The translations under genes were made by a program, and so were the position numbers. The notes beneath the pieces are model-generated. The model did not search any database. It worked only from the letters and a program-made list of their open reading frames with translations, and was not told the DNA's origin. From a virus (taxonomy: Duplodnaviria; Heunggongvirae; Uroviricota; Caudoviricetes), in the IMG/VR virus record IMGVR_UViG_2778261418_000009, positions 1 to 5,372 of that record: 5,372 bases of DNA; one strand, 5' to 3'. Below, one piece after another: positions 1 through 5,372 of the stretch (positions are counted from its first letter, which is position 1; each line of letters begins with the position of its first letter).

Positions 1-268
1 CATTGGCAAAGGCTGCACGCAACCCGGCCTTAATTTCCTCTACCTCATCAGCACCTGGCGATGAATCTGACAGTGCGCGATGGAATGCGTAAGCCATGTC
101 GTCGTTGATTTCTACAGGCACACTATCAGCCTTGCGGCGCTCCTGTAGCTCGCGCAGAGCCGCTACAACATAATGGCTATTGTGCTGGTCAGCCCACAGA
201 ATGAGCCGAATCAACGTTGCATTTGAAACGTATTCGTCTGTTAGTTTGCTATTGGTAAAAGTCGTCAT
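1..268 (-). CDS. Hypothetical phage protein, 5' portion only (start at 268, continues past the left edge)
   Basis: ATG at 266..268 (- strand) overlaps the HNH stop as ATGA. Upstream SD-like GAAGGGG. Frame stays open to position 1 (about 89 codons, MTTFTNSKLTDEYVSNATLIRLILWADQHNSHYVVAALRELQERRKA...). No motif recognised. Not in the ORF track because no stop lies inside the window. Confidence 0.45.
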   Translation of the reverse strand, partial: MTTFTNSKLTDEYVSNATLIRLILWADQHNSHYVVAALRELQERRKADSVPVEINDDMAYAFHRALSDSSPGADEVEEIKAGLRAAFAN

Positions 269-630
269 GCCGTAGCCCCTTCTTGATATTTTTCAAACCA
301 GAACACAACCGGGTCAGATTTCATTTCAACCAACCCCATACGAACCAGCGCTTTGCCTTTCCCGGACGCAAGGAATTCACGACGACCATCACTGATAATT
401 CGCCGATAATCTTCCAGGCTACTGCAATGCTTATGCAGATTGCATGGGTGGCATGCCGGAACCATGTTGGATATATCGTCACGTTCCTGGTGAAGCATAT
501 TTCCATCAAAACGAATGACCGGTTTTACATGGTCTGCATGCCACTTTTCGCCAAGTTCGCAGCCGCAATAAGCGCAGCGACCACCAAACTTCATGCGCAG
601 TTCTGCACGTTGTTTTTTCGTCAGTGCCAT
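265..630 (-). CDS. HNH endonuclease (121 aa)
   Basis: Within track ORF 265..720, but the start is placed at the internal ATG 628..630 because it is preceded by SD AAGGAAGG at about 5 nt spacing and sits 1 nt after the upstream gene's stop. Translation contains a classical HNH metal-finger layout: CAYCG ... HADHVKP ... N ... ACHPCNLHK. Confidence 0.8.
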   Translation of the reverse strand: MALTKKQRAELRMKFGGRCAYCGCELGEKWHADHVKPVIRFDGNMLHQERDDISNMVPACHPCNLHKHCSSLEDYRRIISDGRREFLASGKGKALVRMGLVEMKSDPVVFWFEKYQEGATA

Positions 631-631
631 A

Positions 632-850
632 TCAGCCTTCCTTATATGGATTAATTTTATTGTGTAGTGCGTTGAACGACGCCCATACCACGTCGTTATA
701 CAATTCAATAACTGGCTCAATTATTTTCCCGATTGCCCAGATAAAAATTAGCGGGGATATCGGTATCATCAACACGATAAACAGAATGAGAAACATGATT
801 TCTATTGTTCTGCTTCTTCGCGGGTATTCTTTTCTGAATAATGTAGGCAC
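632..850 (-). CDS. Small membrane protein (72 aa, one predicted transmembrane helix)
   Basis: Track ORF 632..850. GTG start preceded by SD AAAGGAGAG. Basic N-terminus (RKEYPRRSR) followed by a hydrophobic stretch IMFLILFIVLMIPISPLIFIWAIG. Stop TGA at 632..634 lies 1 nt before the HNH ATG. Confidence 0.45.
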   Translation of the reverse strand: MPTLFRKEYPRRSRTIEIMFLILFIVLMIPISPLIFIWAIGKIIEPVIELYNDVVWASFNALHNKINPYKEG

Positions 851-851
851 A

Positions 852-1040
852 TCACTCTCCTTTAGTGCGCAAGTGGCTTTTCCAGCGGTTTTGCGCCGCG
901 CTGGGCTTTTTGCAACAGCTGTGACCCATCACCCCGCAACACCCCGTCAACCTCACTCGTCTGTTACTAATCCTCAACCATCGCCAGACCCCAACACCGT
1001 TTCTGCGAGCTAACAGAATCTTTGCTTTACGGTTTTTCAT
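852..1040 (-). CDS. Small highly basic Cys-rich protein (62 aa)
   Basis: Track ORF 852..1040. ATG at 1038..1040 preceded by SD AGGAGAG. By my count 17 Lys/Arg and 1 acidic residue. Motif CC-x6-CC (GCCGVMGHSCCKK). Its stop is embedded in the RBS of the next gene. Comparable in size and charge to small nin-region proteins of lambdoid phages (analogy only). Confidence 0.4.
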   Translation of the reverse strand: MKNRKAKILLARRNGVGVWRWLRISNRRVRLTGCCGVMGHSCCKKPSAAQNRWKSHLRTKGE

Positions 1041-1207
1041 CGTTTTGCTCTCCTGCGTTTCTTTGCTGCACGTCGCGCCGCTGCAATACCGGTATGGCGC
1101 TTTGGTGCCGGGATAATATTGTCAGCCATCATGACATGTGGAATAACTGTTAATGACGACGCCCCAAACCGCACCAGATACGGCAATAAACAATTTTCCA
1201 TCCGCAT
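1037..1207 (-). CDS. Small protein with a poly-basic C-terminal tail (56 aa); below the track length cutoff
   Basis: Hand translation of the - strand: ATG at 1205..1207 preceded by GAGGTGA; product MRMENCLLPYLVRFGASSLTVIPHVMMADNIIPAPKRHTGIAAARRAAKKRRRAKR; stop TGA at 1037..1039 overlaps the ATG of the 62-aa gene (ATGA). Could still be spurious. Confidence 0.3.
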   Translation of the reverse strand: MRMENCLLPYLVRFGASSLTVIPHVMMADNIIPAPKRHTGIAAARRAAKKRRRAKR

Positions 1208-1283
1208 TTCTCACCTCAATTGATCTGAATATCAGTAATTGTTTGTTGCAACCATTCTTTAGTTAGTTCTGCCATTTTTATTA

Positions 1284-1335
1284 CCGCCCTTTCGGGCGGC
1301 CTCCGGATGATTTGAGGGTGCAGGAATCCCTCCGG
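1284..1335 (-). other. Structured intergenic element: GC hairpin with a GAAA tetraloop on the transcribed (-) strand, plus a second weaker hairpin
   Basis: 1284..1299 is ccgccc-tttc-gggcgg on +, which is CCGCCC-GAAA-GGGCGG on the - strand (6-bp GC stem, GNRA-type loop). 1314..1332 is gaggg-N9-ccctc. ctccgg occurs twice (1301..1306, 1330..1335). No U-tract follows on either strand. Lies in the roughly 200-bp gap between two - strand gene blocks. Confidence 0.3.
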
Positions 1336-1404
1336 TTAAGGATTTAATAAAAACCACTTCTGATTTAAATTTTCAGTGTTTTGTTGCCAGGTGATTTATC
1401 GCCT

Positions 1405-1716
1405 TTACGCTTCAGCCTTATTTCGCAACCAGACACAAACCGGGCCATCTTCGGTGTCATGTATTGAACCAATAAACCATCCATCGCCCTCTGGTCGTTC
1501 CGGTTTCCAGGAGGCAATATCGGGACCATCTGCGTCCAGATTAAAATCATCTTCATCCATAGTTCTGATGGTCCACTGAAGATTATTTTCCTCCATCCAT
1601 GCGTTAAACTCTTCCGTTGAAATATGTTCTCTACCATCACAGAATTTTTCATATTCAGGATGCGTCCAGCAGCCATATTCATCACGTACTACTGGTATTT
1701 CTTTAATTTCATTCAT
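1405..1716 (-). CDS. Strongly acidic, Trp-rich small protein (103 aa), function unknown
   Basis: Track ORF 1405..1716. ATG preceded by GGGAG and overlapping the upstream gene's end by 8 nt. By my count 26 Asp/Glu against 9 Lys/Arg, and 6 Trp. The overlapping alternative-frame ORF 1365..1685 lacks these signals. Confidence 0.6.
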   Translation of the reverse strand: MNEIKEIPVVRDEYGCWTHPEYEKFCDGREHISTEEFNAWMEENNLQWTIRTMDEDDFNLDADGPDIASWKPERPEGDGWFIGSIHDTEDGPVCVWLRNKAEA

Positions 1717-1963
1717 TTCTATTCTCCCACGTTTTCAGACTTTCACCACAGAACGGACAAAATGAAACCCGCACTGGTGATTTAGAAAATTCACCGGAAC
1801 GCAACATCACCAAATCAGGGCCGCGAGTTAAACTCTCATTCCAGATTTTGTATATCAGCAGACCTTTTCGCGTCGTGTATTCAGCATCATGCTCAAGGGC
1901 TTTTGCCAGTGCCGCACATGGTTCTATCTGATTGCCATTAACCTGGCATTTTGATTCACTCAC
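1709..1963 (-). CDS. Small protein with four Cys (84 aa), possible zinc-ribbon; function unknown
   Basis: Track ORF 1709..1963. GTG start preceded by GGAGGAGG and overlapping the upstream stop (GTGA). Cys at positions 6, 16, 69 and 72 (C-x9-C ... CPFC). Confidence 0.5.
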   Translation of the reverse strand: MSESKCQVNGNQIEPCAALAKALEHDAEYTTRKGLLIYKIWNESLTRGPDLVMLRSGEFSKSPVRVSFCPFCGESLKTWENRNE

Positions 1964-2382
1964 CGCACCTCCTCCTCAAAATTCCCCTGATAAAACGCCA
2001 GTACGTGCTGCATAGCTTCACTCTTCCGGCACTCGCGACAGATTATGTTTAGGCGCCTGTCGTAGCGGCGTATTTCGCCGTCTGGTAACGACCAGATAAG
2101 GTCCGGATCAACTACTGCAGGTTTCTTCACCTTTGTCCTTGAGAGTTTTTTGCGGGCATTTTGCCAGTCCTTACGAGCCTGTTCAGACGGGAATAACCCG
2201 TAACCAGAGTTGTATACATCGCCACTGGCAACCAGCTCTCTGGCAAGAACGCTCATCAGATATCTTGTCGCACCTGTCTTGGCTTCCAGTTGCCGTAACG
2301 TCTCGCGCCCACTCTGGCGTACGAATTCAACAACCTGCCCTTTAATTTTTTCCCGCTCTTCTTGTGTAAAAACTTTTGCCAC
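1960..2382 (-). CDS. Hypothetical early-region protein (140 aa) with a possible HTH-like N-terminal segment
   Basis: Track ORF 1960..2382. GTG start at 2380..2382 preceded by GGAGGA. Segment ETLRQLEAKTGATRYLMSVLARELV looks helix-turn-helix-like by eye (inference only). CxxC (CRECR) near the C-terminus. Sits directly downstream of the initiator gene. Confidence 0.55.
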   Translation of the reverse strand: MAKVFTQEEREKIKGQVVEFVRQSGRETLRQLEAKTGATRYLMSVLARELVASGDVYNSGYGLFPSEQARKDWQNARKKLSRTKVKKPAVVDPDLIWSLPDGEIRRYDRRLNIICRECRKSEAMQHVLAFYQGNFEEEVR

Positions 2383-2422
2383 AAGTCCTCCTGAAAATTA
2401 CCTCATGACCAGAAATCAACAC

Positions 2423-3493
2423 TTACCCCCTGAAGCCCGGTGGAATTTCGGTATCCGGTTCAGAAATATGATTCACACAACGCTGGTTGTTCGTGCCGCT
2501 TACCGGGAGCAACCAGGGGTTCTCAAAATTCCGGTCCGGTCCAAAAAACGTCGTCGCTCGCTGAACAAATTCCGTTCCCGTTTTCCCGGTAGCCGCCAGG
2601 TATCTTGCGTAACGCCTCACGCCATCCAGCATGGCCTCTGGTGGCACCCCCTCGCGTAATCTGGCCTTCCAGGCACTGAAAGCGGATTTCTTCGGATTTG
2701 CCCCGGCACGCAACGGGTACTCCCGCCAGACCTGTTCGAACACATCCGGATAATCCACTCGTCTCACAGGCTGCCCGGTGTTTTCCGGGACTACCCGATC
2801 GGCTTCCCGCTGAATGGAGGAATCGGCTTCAGGCTGCTGCAGTTGGTGTGATTGCTCCGGCCTTGCGGTCATCACCTGCTGCACAGCGCCCGAATCGGCT
2901 TTCAGCGCATACGCTGAATCGGCTTCCGGTGTCGTGCCTGCTGGCTGACCAGGATTGACGGTCTGAACATCCCCTGCCTGGTTCGTGGCGTTTTTTACGC
3001 CATGGACCATAGTGTTTTGATCTTCTTGATCTGTATCTTTATCTGTATCTTTATCTGTCGTGACTCGTCGTGACATGTGCGTGACATTTCGTGACGCGCC
3101 GTGACAATCTCCATTTTGTTCCCGCTTTCTTTCCCTCTCTCGCTGCGCCCTCTTGCGCTCTGCCGGAGATTTTGCGGTTTGCGAAATATTGCCGTTGTCC
3201 TCTTTCAGCACCTGGCGTTTTTCCCATCCAGTGATTAAATCACCATCAAGTACCCGCCCCTGCATCGTCTGCAAAATTGAATCAATTACCTCTTCTGTCA
3301 CGTCGAGCGCACTTGCCAAATCTTCTGTCGTGACATCAATGTGACCTCGCGTGACATTTCGTGACGCGCTCACCAATAGGTGGATATACACTGCCATCAC
3401 TGTTGCAATTGGCTGCCCTGACACCCTGGCAATTGTTCGCCACTTAGGGTCATTTGGCATGTCATGCCATAATCTGAGCCAGGCGTTAGCCAT
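2423..3493 (-). CDS. Phage replication initiation protein (O-like; replisome-organizer-type N-terminus, conserved phage C-terminal domain), carrying internal iteron arrays
   Basis: Track ORF 2423..3499. Start preferred at ATG 3491..3493 (MANAWLRLWHDMPNDPKW...), preceded by AGAGGTGA; a GTG two codons upstream is the alternative. The N-terminal W-x-R-L-x3-M-x-N-D-P-K-W pattern resembles phage replisome-organizer N-domains (from memory, not searched). Charged low-complexity linker (ERKRAQRERERKREQ, TDKDTDKDTD). Direct repeats typical of an ori lie inside the gene. Confidence 0.7.
   Translation of the reverse strand: MANAWLRLWHDMPNDPKWRTIARVSGQPIATVMAVYIHLLVSASRNVTRGHIDVTTEDLASALDVTEEVIDSILQTMQGRVLDGDLITGWEKRQVLKEDNGNISQTAKSPAERKRAQRERERKREQNGDCHGASRNVTHMSRRVTTDKDTDKDTDQEDQNTMVHGVKNATNQAGDVQTVNPGQPAGTTPEADSAYALKADSGAVQQVMTARPEQSHQLQQPEADSSIQREADRVVPENTGQPVRRVDYPDVFEQVWREYPLRAGANPKKSAFSAWKARLREGVPPEAMLDGVRRYARYLAATGKTGTEFVQRATTFFGPDRNFENPWLLPVSGTNNQRCVNHISEPDTEIPPGFRG
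3029..3058. repeat. Five tandem copies of a 6-bp unit ATCTKT (A/T-rich), adjacent to iteron array 1
   Basis: atctgt atcttt atctgt atcttt atctgt read directly from the sequence. Encodes TDKDTDKDTD on the - strand. Two GATC sites lie just upstream (3019..3022, 3028..3031). Confidence 0.8.
3059..3105. repeat. Iteron-like array 1: five direct CGTGAC repeats at 10-11 bp phasing (candidate origin of replication)
   Basis: CGTGAC at 3059, 3069, 3080, 3090 and 3100 (start positions), read directly. One-helical-turn phasing inside the initiator gene matches the lambda arrangement of ori within O (established knowledge for lambda; inference here). Confidence 0.6.
3329..3365. repeat. Iteron-like array 2: four (C/T)GTGAC repeats at 10-11 bp phasing, including a 21-bp exact copy of part of array 1
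   Basis: Repeats start at 3329, 3340, 3350 and 3360. gcgtgacatttcgtgacgcgc is identical at 3079..3099 and 3349..3369. An inverted copy GTCACG lies at 3297..3302. Confidence 0.55.
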
Positions 3494-3564
3494 ACTCACC
3501 TCTTTTGATACCGAATCTTTTTACTCACAAATTGCCGGAAGTGATCTGGTATGAATATCGCGAG

Positions 3565-3990
3565 TCAATGCACAGCCACAATATTTCCTGCAGGGCCACC
3601 ACGATTCATCTGGTTGAAACCAGCGATCGCCACTGCGACAAAATCATCAGCGTCTCTCACCAGTCGTTCCCGCGTCTCCACTAGTTCCCGAAAATAGGCT
3701 GAGCTATGGCTGCGCATTCGGGCCACCAGCAGAGGCGGCATTGCTTTTTCGATAGCTGGTAACAACGCCTGAATTTTTTTAACCGCATCAGGGGTGTCTT
3801 TCTCCACCCAGCGGAAAATTTTCTGAGTATTGCGAGCCAGGGCTTCCGGATGGCTGTCGTCATACAGTTCCGGGAACGTCATTCCCAGCTCGAAATACGC
3901 TTTGGTAATTTTCGCAGCCGGTACTTTTTCGCCGTCCGGATGCGCCCAGGCATTCATCGCCATGCGGATATGTTCATGCTTGATTTTCAT
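3565..3990 (-). CDS. ydaT: YdaT-like protein (functional analogue of CII in Rac/CP-933P-type prophages), 141 aa
   Basis: Within track ORF 3565..4062. Start placed at the internal ATG 3988..3990 (MKIKHEHIRMAMNAW...) because of the strong SD AAGGGGGG about 5 nt upstream. It overlaps the end of the cro-like gene by 17 nt. Assignment rests on position (directly after cro) and on my recollection of the YdaT N-terminus; not verified by search. Confidence 0.6.
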   Translation of the reverse strand: MKIKHEHIRMAMNAWAHPDGEKVPAAKITKAYFELGMTFPELYDDSHPEALARNTQKIFRWVEKDTPDAVKKIQALLPAIEKAMPPLLVARMRSHSSAYFRELVETRERLVRDADDFVAVAIAGFNQMNRGGPAGNIVAVH

Positions 3991-4216
3991 GAATCCCCCC
4001 TTGGTTAGAAGGCGGATTATGATCAGAACCGGGAATGACAACCGTCGGTATGTGTAACTCATATTTGAGCGCCCCGGCAGTGACTGCCTGAATTAGCAAC
4101 GCCCATTTCCACGGAACCTCTTCCCCCCACATGCTGACTGTGGTTTTTGACGTTCCTAGAGCTGCGGCTGTTTTAACAACTCCGCCAAAATAGCCTAATA
4201 CTTCTGATTTTTTCAT
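3974..4216 (-). CDS. cro: Cro/YdaS-like HTH transcriptional regulator (80 aa)
   Basis: Within track ORF 3974..4264. Start placed at ATG 4214..4216 (MKKSEVLGYFGGVVKTAAALGTSKTTVSMWG...) with SD GGAG at about 7 nt; an ATG four codons upstream (4226..4228) has no SD. HTH signature GGVVKTAAALGTSKTTVSMW. Divergent from the cI-like gene across the operator region. Confidence 0.7.
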   Translation of the reverse strand: MKKSEVLGYFGGVVKTAAALGTSKTTVSMWGEEVPWKWALLIQAVTAGALKYELHIPTVVIPGSDHNPPSNQGGIHENQA

Positions 4217-4307
4217 GAGTCGCTCCATAAAACTGAACGCCAAAAGTTTAATAATCAAAACCAAAGAAAGTCAAGAAACAAAACCATCTGTGTTTTAAAA
4301 TCAAAAC
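4217..4307. promoter_or_regulatory. Divergent immunity control region (PR-like and PRM-like promoters with operator half-sites)
   Basis: A/T-rich 91-bp spacer between the divergent cro and cI starts. Repeated GTTTT/AAAAC half-sites form imperfect 16-18 bp palindromes (for example tGTTTTaaaatcAAAACa at 4291..4308 and GTTTaataatcAAAAC at 4246..4261), and aatcaaaac occurs twice (4253..4261, 4299..4307). - strand -35 TTGACT (complement of 4269..4274) with a weak -10 near 4248..4253. + strand -10 TAAAAT at 4295..4300, only 7 nt before the cI ATG, with no SD, which suggests a leaderless cI mRNA as in lambda PRM. Confidence 0.5.
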
Positions 4308-4946
4308 ATGAGCAAGCAAACAATATCTGAACGCATAACCCAACGTATGCATGCGCTAAACCTGAAAGGCAAAGACCTTGTCAATGCCACTGGCGCATCA
4401 AAAGGCTCCGTAAGTCAATGGATGAACGGTGGAGGAGCGCCGTCCTCGCGTTACATAAGTTCACTGGCAAAAATATTGAAAGTAAACGAAAATTGGCTTC
4501 TTAATGGAGGAGAGTTAAATACAGGTGATTCGCTTGATCTATCTTTACCGCCGATAAAAACGGTTCCGCTACTATCACTTCAGCAGGCAGCAAGCTGGAG
4601 TGATTATATGAAAAATTCCTCAATAACCTCTTGTGTGCAGCTTGTCGGAGAAATCCCGGCCAATACCTTTGCAGTTGTTCTAGAGAGTGACAGTATGTCA
4701 ACATCTGGTGGGGGAGTTTCCATCCCAAATGGTTCAACAGTTTTTGTTGATCCCGATCGAACCGTACAACCAGGAAATATTGTCCTTGCCTTACCCAAAG
4801 GGACCACAACACCTGTCATTCGTAAACTGGAGATAGAAGGGCCGGATATTCTTTTAGTCCCCACGAATCCTCGCTACCCTTCAATTATGCTGGATGATCT
4901 ATCTTGCATATTGGGCGTATGCTTTAAAATTCAACAAGATATTTAA
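4308..4946 (+). CDS. cI: cI-like prophage repressor (N-terminal HTH_XRE, C-terminal S24 LexA-type peptidase), 212 aa
   Basis: Track ORF 4308..4946. HTH segment LKGKDLVNATGASKGSVSQWMNG. C-terminal domain has the Ser nucleophile context ESDSMS and the downstream Lys in VIRKLEIEG, as in LexA and lambda cI. No SD before the ATG. Confidence 0.88.
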   Translation: MSKQTISERITQRMHALNLKGKDLVNATGASKGSVSQWMNGGGAPSSRYISSLAKILKVNENWLLNGGELNTGDSLDLSLPPIKTVPLLSLQQAASWSDYMKNSSITSCVQLVGEIPANTFAVVLESDSMSTSGGGVSIPNGSTVFVDPDRTVQPGNIVLALPKGTTTPVIRKLEIEGPDILLVPTNPRYPSIMLDDLSCILGVCFKIQQDI

Positions 4947-4974
4947 CCGACCTCATCTATTTGATTAACTGTAT

Positions 4975-4991
4975 GCCATCGTGGTGATGGC
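4975..4991 (+). other. Perfect 6-bp-arm palindrome gccatc-gtggt-gatggc downstream of cI (possible weak terminator or protein-binding site)
   Basis: Read directly; lies 29 nt after the cI stop. No clear U-tract follows, so intrinsic-terminator function is uncertain. Confidence 0.25.
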
Positions 4992-5030
4992 TTAACAGCT
5001 GCCTGCTTAAAATGTTTTGATAAAAAAACA

Positions 5031-5059
5031 TTGACCTGAAAAGTTCATTTTTCTAAACT
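5031..5059 (+). promoter_or_regulatory. Candidate sigma70 promoter for the gene downstream of cI
   Basis: TTGACC (5031..5036), 17-nt spacer, TAAACT (5054..5059); an A/T-rich UP-like tract aaaatgttttgataaaaaaaca lies immediately upstream. Confidence 0.4.
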
Positions 5060-5238
5060 TCATTCATTCCCTCTCCCCACCCCACAGAATGCAGGGCAAT
5101 ACTTCGAGTTACCAGGCAGTGGTCAGGGGTTAAGTAGCCAGCCCGAGGCGTAAGAACATGACGGCAGGGTTCAACTTTAATAACTATGCAGCAGGTTTTT
5201 GTTCCGCTACCCCGGCGTTAAGGGGAAATGAGGTCAGC

Positions 5239-5372
5239 ATGGATACTATCGATCTTGACAACAGCGAATCTCTGGTATGTGGCGTGTTCCCCAACCAGGA
5301 CGGTACGTTCACCGCGATGACGTATACCAAAAGCAAAACGTTTAAAACCGAAAATGGTGCCCGTCGCTGGCT
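5239..5372 (+). CDS. Unrecognised protein in the rex/sieB-equivalent slot, N-terminal part only (runs off the right edge)
   Basis: ATG 5239 preceded by GAGGT at about 5 nt. Frame open to the window end (MDTIDLDNSESLVCGVFPNQDGTFTAMTYTKSKTFKTENGARRW...). An in-frame ATG at 5158 with a weaker SD (GAGG, about 9 nt) is an alternative start. Not in the ORF track because no stop lies inside the window. Confidence 0.5.
   Translation, partial: MDTIDLDNSESLVCGVFPNQDGTFTAMTYTKSKTFKTENGARRW

Follow-up and report, generated by a model that had tools for sequence, protein, structure and literature searches.

A small gene of a lambdoid prophage, placed in its immunity and early-right region, raises the question of what a strongly acidic, tryptophan-rich protein of about one hundred residues might be doing there. 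The gene lies on the minus strand of a 5,372-nt stretch of DNA (the window), which comprises positions 1 to 5,372 of the IMG/VR virus record IMGVR_UViG_2778261418_000009, and a preliminary description had proposed its product (the target protein) as a candidate DNA mimic or anti-defence factor. By every criterion that could be tested on its sequence, this product is a member of the family catalogued as PHROG 1372, to which orf184 of coliphage mEp213 also belongs. With somewhat better than even confidence, we consider the family to consist of stand-alone binding effectors that dock through an acidic pole and that take part in conflicts between mobile elements and their hosts.

The open reading frame (ORF) at 1405..1716 (-) encodes 103 amino acids (aa) followed by a TAA stop, the complete translation being MNEIKEIPVVRDEYGCWTHPEYEKFCDGREHISTEEFNAWMEENNLQWTIRTMDEDDFNLDADGPDIASWKPERPEGDGWFIGSIHDTEDGPVCVWLRNKAEA. 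Recounting from this translation returned exactly the numbers first given, namely 26 Asp and Glu against 9 Lys and Arg, and 6 Trp; the computed isoelectric point (pI) is 4.22, and the net charge of -17 over 103 aa corresponds to 0.165 net acid per residue. Compared with 99 neighbouring gene families from related loci, the acid density stands at about +2.2 standard deviations and is equalled or exceeded by two of them, a composition that is unusual for such a setting, though not unique. The start codon, an ATG at 1714-1716, falls within ATGAATGA (1709..1716, -), where the start of the gene overlaps the stop of an upstream ORF of 84 aa, and a Shine-Dalgarno-like GGGAG (1724..1728, -) is read 7 nt 5' of it; through this overlap and the GGGAG, the translational coupling proposed earlier appears plausible. 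The early placement is borne out as well: the gene is on the strand of the Cro, cII and replication genes, 3' of the O-like replisome organiser and of a DUF977/Ren-like gene, and it is a genuine gene of an early operon.

The protein matches phrog_1372, annotated in PHROGs as 'unknown function', over residues 1-102 with an E value of 5e-54; phrog_20322 and phrog_6157 are more distant relatives. The profile of PHROG 1372 has 194 positions, as against the 103 aa of the stand-alone form found here, and it must therefore also span flanking sequence or fusions that the target protein lacks; all of the 64 long fusion proteins examined match it. Close homologues form 142 clusters at 90% identity, every one carrying the label 'hypothetical' or 'prophage protein'; their sources are Escherichia, Salmonella, Citrobacter, Klebsiella, Erwinia and others, and a profile search returned 943 representative clusters at E<=1e-3 (335 at E<=1e-10). 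Because of these 142 and 943 clusters, and of 12 invariant columns in an alignment of 44 sequences, the ORF is more than a chance one. Searches with tblastn place the family in 45 phage records, with identities to the target protein of 97% in mEp460 and phiSTEC1575-Stx2k, 82% in the P1-like phage D6 and 42% in mEp213; further carriers are Yersinia PY54 and phages of Klebsiella, Erwinia, Pectobacterium, Pseudomonas, Burkholderia (phi1026b gp46), Vibrio and Acinetobacter. Among complete E. coli genomes, 938 of 5,426 (about 17%) have the gene, in a patchy distribution, and the homologue in O157:H7 prophages is WP_000111243.1. On the other hand, scans of the protein against Pfam (E<=0.1), NCBIfam and PADLOC returned no family at all, none of the known defence or anti-defence models (PADLOC; Tad2 and Lar in Pfam) was matched by the protein itself, the PDB gave neither a sequence match nor a fold match, and among the predicted structures of BFVD only uncharacterised relatives were recovered. 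The main texts of the literature searched do not mention phrog_1372, the WP accessions or peptides of the family, a sequence of which surfaced only in one supplement.

That supplement accompanies a study of phage accessory genes (Silas et al., bioRxiv 10.1101/2023.04.06.535777), and its library entry UDP0184 corresponds to AFM76385.1, to gene mEp213_045 of coliphage mEp213 and to orf184 of the authors. The numbering UDP000N = orfN was checked and holds for orf1 (which is Ocr) and for orf7, and the AlphaFold file named 'ORF184' starts with MEALVVERSEDGYWT and, fully transcribed, is identical to AFM76385.1. In BLASTP the target protein aligns with orf184 over the full length at 42% identity (E 2e-31). 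Expression of orf184 causes cell death in strain ECOR59; suppressor transposon insertions against this toxicity map to gop and beta, and cloned gop-beta-cII reproduces the orf184-triggered toxicity in a laboratory strain (Silas et al., bioRxiv 10.1101/2023.04.06.535777). In addition, orf184 was picked by an algorithm built to find accessory regions, shares its region with ral, an anti-restriction gene, and was grouped by the authors, beside ral, among 'counter-defense-associated' accessory genes (Silas et al., bioRxiv 10.1101/2023.04.06.535777). The gop-beta-cII locus is an abortive-infection, toxin-antitoxin-like anti-phage system of the P4 hotspot and of P4-like satellites. The two proteins have in common their similar size, acidity and location in an early accessory region, as well as an N-terminal RD..G.WTHP motif and a C-terminal W.P..P.G.GWF.GSIHDTEDGP.C.W.R motif; they differ in that a loop is 6 residues longer and confidently predicted in orf184 (predicted local distance difference test score, pLDDT, 91-97), and in that orf184 follows N in the pL operon whereas the gene of the window follows the replication genes in the pR operon. 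From this likeness, we infer that the target protein may share the trigger activity of orf184 on gop-beta-cII. The study is reported to have been published since then in Mol Cell, in 2025, and our searches found no later literature on the PHROG 1372 family or on triggers of gop-beta-cII. Since the family had been catalogued and the phenotype of orf184 published, the target protein is one more member of a family that was already known.

The genomic settings of the family vary. In the window and in an E. coli A37 prophage, the gene follows the replication genes and opens a nin-like region. In mEp213, it takes the position of ral in the pL operon, just 3' of N and ahead of cIII/kil/erf/abc2; in mEp460, it lies in the distal pL region, before int; and in the P1-like D6, it is found among ead/Ea22-like genes, beside a ppp phosphatase gene and an HNH gene. 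Comparison of the window with mEp213, mEp460, D6, an O157:H7 prophage and plasmids locates it in accessory regions that are variable and transcribed early, and the family gene is a mobile accessory cassette. The flanking genes differ across 80 closely related viral loci, and the immediate neighbours are usually not nucleases. The 84-aa ORF was considered as an obligate partner and rejected: a frequent neighbour, it is nevertheless the preceding gene in only 23 of these 80 loci, and in E. coli genomes and P1-like plasmids either gene can be found alone. Fusions are another source of variety: among the top 150 representatives, about 40% carry the domain fused, at one end or the other, to further sequence, and the partners include Lar restriction-alleviation domains (3 cases), Rv2179c-like 3'-5' exonucleases (2 cases), a DHH/DHHA1 phosphoesterase, a Tad2-like domain, KTSC and a TrwB-like DNA-binding domain. 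One representative of 305 aa (P0131) has the domain in two tandem copies, at residues 12-122 and 166-276. Because the family is modular across different kinds of mobile elements, it looks like a self-contained module used in element-host or element-element conflict rather than a core phage function.

Homologues are also abundant in plasmids, an occurrence on some 2,000 plasmids that was not found in the searchable literature. PLSDB lists 2,033 plasmids with one; 1,760 of these are conjugative, and Klebsiella is the source of 1,496. In IncFII(K) plasmids, the homologue sits between finO and repA, where it is ATGA-coupled and downstream of a gene for a membrane-anchored DUF2726 protein, and it is followed by a gene annotated as 'phospholipase D family protein' (for example at L088:8336-9946, in the Klebsiella pneumoniae IncFIB/IncFII plasmid NZ_CP009115.1, and at L089:4351-5958). 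DUF2726 is classed in the literature as a PD-(D/E)XK, that is restriction-endonuclease, fold. When two plasmid variants are compared, the small protein is 63% identical and the adjacent DUF2726 protein 86%. A different site is seen in F-type plasmids of Enterobacter and Pantoea, where the homologue accompanies small hypothetical genes that separate traW from traU/trbC within the tra operon (L090:4983-5306; L091:4986-5327).

The conservation of the family is concentrated in two blocks, V9-R-D-x-x-G-x-W-T-H-P and W70-x-P-x-x-P-x-G-x-G-W-F-x-x-S-I-H-D-T-E-D-G-P-x-C-x-W-x-R98, and the target protein has both (R11, D12, G15, W17, H19 and P20; W70 to R98). The first corresponds to VVRDEYGCWTHPEY (1651..1692, -), in which R11, G15, W17, H19 and P20 are near-invariant; the second corresponds to WKPERPEGDGWFIGSIHDTEDGPVCVWLR (1423..1509, -), predicted to fold as a beta-hairpin that forms a Trp-rich core and whose tip, HDTEDG, is encoded at 1444..1461 (-). 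Composition was evaluated in 140 diverse domains of the family, with medians of 21 Asp/Glu, 7 Lys/Arg, net charge -14, pI 4.24 and 6 Trp; the net charge ranges widely, from -2 to -21, and acidity is kept across most of the family. The acidic cluster that had attracted attention at first is indeed present, as the loop DEDDFNLDADGPD (aa 54-66; 1519..1557, -), and it falls in the least conserved, indel-prone segment of the protein; this loop is the most variable in both sequence and length, yet nearly devoid of Lys and Arg throughout the family, and only its first residues stay acidic (D54 in 78% and D56 in 87% of members).

An AlphaFold2 (AF2) model of the target protein, built on a 44-sequence alignment, has a pLDDT of 83.8 and a predicted template modelling score of 0.72, and proposes an alpha/beta domain, compact and some 100 aa long, with helices at 20-26 and 34-43, a strand at 46-52, a less confident loop at 53-79 (DEDDFNLDADGPD at pLDDT 73-74) and a hairpin at 80-88/91-99. 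The three-dimensional analysis used alpha- and beta-carbon (CA and CB) coordinates transcribed from the AF2 model published for orf184 (most positions at pLDDT 90-98), a transcription whose sequence proved identical and whose geometry proved valid. This model is a small elongated globule, with a radius of gyration of 14 Å and a maximum dimension of 43 Å, in which W70, P72, P75, W80, F81, I85, P92, C94 and W96 are buried and R11, W17 and H19 are semi-buried to buried. As most conserved residues are buried, the conservation would mainly mirror the Trp-rich core and not an obvious catalytic pocket. A metal or catalytic His/His/Glu site was considered and rejected on this burial and on the distance between H19 and H86, about 10.7 Å at CA by hand computation. 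A one-sided acidic face or stripe was likewise rejected, since the acidic residues taken together show an even distribution on the surface (p ~0.4-0.55 when compared with random exposed sets). On the other hand, the seven positions that are acidic in at least 75% of the family (D12, E30, D54, D56, D87, E89 and D90) cluster at one pole of the model, with a mean pair distance of 14.1 Å against 20.9+-2.3 Å for random sets of exposed positions (p=0.005), and the D-T-E-D tip of the hairpin is fully exposed at its centre. This acidic pole, made up of the HDTEDG tip with D12, E30, D54 and D56, is the candidate binding surface of the family.

From the composition, the pole, the placement and the fusions, we infer that the family acts through protein binding, and also the surface and the class of target involved. 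The target protein would work alone as a small binding effector, which would attach by its acidic pole to a basic surface, probably one that binds nucleic acid, on a protein of the host or of a rival element, and the bound protein would be blocked or redirected. A nuclease or a defence component would be the leading candidate for this partner, because of the repeated association of the family with DUF2726, Rv2179c-like and DHH proteins, a phospholipase D family neighbour, Lar and ral. As a side effect, P4-type gop-beta-cII loci might sense the protein or its effect, and the cell would be killed, if the trigger property of orf184 is shared. The general idea of the preliminary description, an early accessory protein with a part in defence or counter-defence, finds indirect support in the trigger activity of orf184, the ral neighbourhood, the accessory slots and the fusions to Lar and to a Tad2-like domain; the literature gives no anti-defence activity for any member.

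Several points weigh against a binding effector of this kind. The preprint mentions orf184 solely as a trigger of cell death and reports neither a counter-defence phenotype nor a target for it (Silas et al., bioRxiv 10.1101/2023.04.06.535777), and for no member of the family does the literature report a binding partner or a counter-defence phenotype. With an identity of no more than 42% to orf184, the target protein may itself lack trigger activity. The fusion partners are a mixed set, and most of them, including the largest group, have no Pfam or PHROG annotation. The plasmid homologues are far less acidic, with net charges of -8 and -4, and because of this mild acidity, strong acidity would be unessential to the fold and perhaps to the function. 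Anti-defence genes of plasmids concentrate in the leading region; placement in that region was looked for on plasmids and was not found, the gene being at the distal end of tra or inside it. Finally, the structural evidence is at the level of CA and CB positions in the predicted model of a homologue, and it should be weighted accordingly.

A bolder version of the same idea would make these proteins small acidic inhibitors of a new fold, shared by temperate phages, phage-plasmids and conjugative plasmids, that use the acidic pole to neutralise a widespread nuclease or defence component of the host by nucleic-acid mimicry, with gop-beta-cII as an evolved guard; we put this forward tentatively, as something rather unlikely. 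If true, orf184 and gop-beta-cII would be a second pair of the type formed by Ocr and PARIS, the latter being a system that senses Ocr. Barstar, the colicin Im proteins, UGI, T7 gp5.9 and lambda Gam are comparable acidic proteins of about 50-140 aa that inhibit nucleases or DNA enzymes by occupying a nucleic-acid-binding site, and here the link to nucleases comes through gene neighbourhood and fusion; they differ in that the target protein has no fold match to solved structures, which leaves the likeness as functional speculation.

A true DNA mimic in the manner of Ocr and ArdA would fill the DNA-binding groove of a type I restriction-modification enzyme, BREX, RecBCD or a similar machine. We regard this as improbable. 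The high net negative charge of DNA mimics is found, since the 0.165 per residue of the target protein, in a family with a median net charge of -14, lies between the 0.098 of Arn and the 0.239 of Ocr, and most of the family is acidic, with a conserved acidic pole. The mEp213 homologue at the ral position after N, the members fused to Lar and a possible parallel between orf184 with gop-beta-cII and the sensing of Ocr by PARIS point in the same direction. The target protein resembles Ocr (T7 gp0.3) and ArdA in being small, very acidic, early and encoded by a mobile element, with a comparable charge density. However, those proteins are elongated helical dimers with a DNA-like charge pattern, and the target protein is predicted to be globular and alpha/beta, with an even charge. 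The Pfam scan (E<=0.1) gave no match to the Ocr family, the all-helical, elongated dimer by which Ocr mimics bent B-DNA is not the shape predicted for the target protein, and neither the ArdA profile nor its three-domain elongated fold was found in Pfam, PDB sequence or structural comparisons. The earlier remark that no similarity to these two families could be seen is confirmed, by Pfam as well as by PDB sequence and fold comparison, and the mimic proposed at the same time is left unsupported, given that likeness is absent to any solved protein. The model of the target protein is alpha/beta, and that of orf184 shows a small globular monomer with even charge, not patterned along a rod, where helical, DNA-like patterning had been suggested as a check; as regards carboxylates placed like DNA phosphates, the acids of the orf184 model at CA/CB level are evenly spread overall, and the conserved seven cluster at one pole; some plasmid homologues are just mildly acidic (net -4 and -8); and the acidic cluster offered as a sign of mimicry is the variable loop in the alignments. 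DNA mimicry by the target protein is possible but unsupported, positive structural evidence being lacking.

Another explanation, similarly improbable, is that the family is a regulatory or immunity-like module associated with nucleases, which would act as barstar and the colicin Im proteins do, by binding a cognate nuclease of its own element or of a competitor so as to inhibit or target it. The plasmids argue for it, with a homologue coupled in IncFII(K) to a membrane-anchored DUF2726 protein of restriction-endonuclease fold and followed by a phospholipase D family gene, and with the small protein diverging faster than its neighbour (63% against 86% identity); so do members joined in frame to Rv2179c-like 3'-5' exonucleases or to a DHH/DHHA1 phosphoesterase, and the HNH endonuclease gene a few genes downstream in the window and in phage D6. 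However, the local support is confined to plasmids, as phage neighbours vary and are usually not nucleases, both IncFII(K) examples belong to one lineage and are not independent, and fusion to an enzyme is odd for an inhibitor of that enzyme. Solved structures include known immunity proteins, as well as the sponges Tad1, Tad2 and Acb2, and the fold matches none of them.

Much less credible is a binder of a small molecule, metal or nucleotide, or a small enzyme, for example an immune-signal sponge with a conserved His/Arg/Trp site. The near-invariance of R11, H19, W70, W80 and R98 and the high conservation of H86, D87, E89 and D90 would suit such a site, fusions to a Tad2-like domain and to DHH/DHHA1 are each found in one member, and the conserved carboxylate cluster could chelate cations. 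However, most of the conserved residues, Trp included, are buried in the core; in the orf184 model the two histidines lie about 10.7 Å apart at CA, and R11 seems to lie buried against the backbone, with R98 paired to a Glu; and Pfam, PADLOC and the solved folds, sponges included, gave no match. Least credible of all is an accessory factor for the replication or recombination of the phage itself, such as an adaptor binding SSB or a replisome component, with no part in conflict, which the position downstream of the replisome organiser and DUF977 genes and the fusions to exonucleases and a TrwB-like domain might suggest, but which is at odds with locations unlinked to replication modules (pL in mEp213 and mEp460, plasmid tra, the accessory region of P1-like elements), with a patchy distribution and varying neighbours, and with a homologue found by an algorithm for accessory regions.

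The binding effector proposed here concerns a common family, present in about one in six complete E. coli genomes (O157:H7 prophages included), in phages infecting many Proteobacteria and on some 2,000 plasmids, mostly conjugative ones of Klebsiella, the sole known activity of which is that of orf184 in setting off an abortive-infection system. The gene of the window contributes little beyond one extra member. Identifying the target of the family would explain what gop-beta-cII guards against, could uncover a new fold among inhibitors, and would supply the function of a gene of clinically important plasmids and relatives of Stx phages.

As for the surroundings, the DNA of the window comes from a lambdoid, Qin/Rac-like enterobacterial prophage, of which it makes up the immunity and early-right region. 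A repressor gene of the S24/LexA type is found at 4308-4946 (+), a P22-Cro-like gene and a cII/YdaT-like gene share the strand of the target gene, and the O-like replisome organiser (2423-3499, -) and the DUF977/Ren-like gene (1960-2382, -) follow. To the right of the repressor gene, a ydfA-like (DUF1391) gene begins at 5239-5372 (+), and the element is called Qin/Rac-like because this gene matches the order ydfA-ydfB-ydfC-dicB of the E. coli A37 prophage. The O-like gene contains two GTGAC-rich repeat blocks, 260 nt apart, that look like origin iterons, and a tandem repeat of three 12-nt units that encodes (DKDT)n (repeats at 3024-3059, 3067-3105 and 3327-3365). The 84-aa ORF (1709..1963, -), directly upstream of the target gene, belongs to phrog_4030 ('unknown function'), ends in a zinc-ribbon-like CPFCG motif and has weak matches to DUF6980 and DUF7835.

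On the 3' side of the target gene, a GC-rich intergenic hairpin, CCGCCC-TTTC-GGGCGG (1284-1299), comes first, with no proper T-run on either strand, and the 190-nt intergenic RNA has a folding z-score of -2.4. Next, a remnant of 19 codons and a stop, MAELTKEWLQQTITDIQIN (1216-1275, -), matches the N-terminus of a 187-aa protein and looks like a recombination scar; that protein is the most frequent downstream neighbour of the family in related loci, and its C-terminal portion resembles a fusion partner of the domain in representative P0175. Two overlapping small ORFs, at 852-1040 (-) and 1037-1207 (-), encode extremely basic products (pI ~11.9; 17 Lys/Arg in 62 aa and 13 in 56 aa), which contrast sharply with the acidic target protein and match phrog_1380 and phrog_13831, both of 'unknown function'. 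The HNH endonuclease gene (Pfam HNH, phrog_2118) lies three small genes downstream of the target gene, at 265-654 (-), with the listed ORF extending to 720, and has weak PADLOC matches to PtuB-type HNH models of Septu. Finally, related prophages repeatedly have further small, very acidic proteins (58-74 aa) directly beside the family gene, such as MRKFRIIIETGMAGGDFEDVF... and M..TNRELVDAAIELAGDFY...DLEDEE (L025:5442-5624; L078:4780-5004; and other related loci), and acidic mini-proteins are a repeated feature of such accessory regions.

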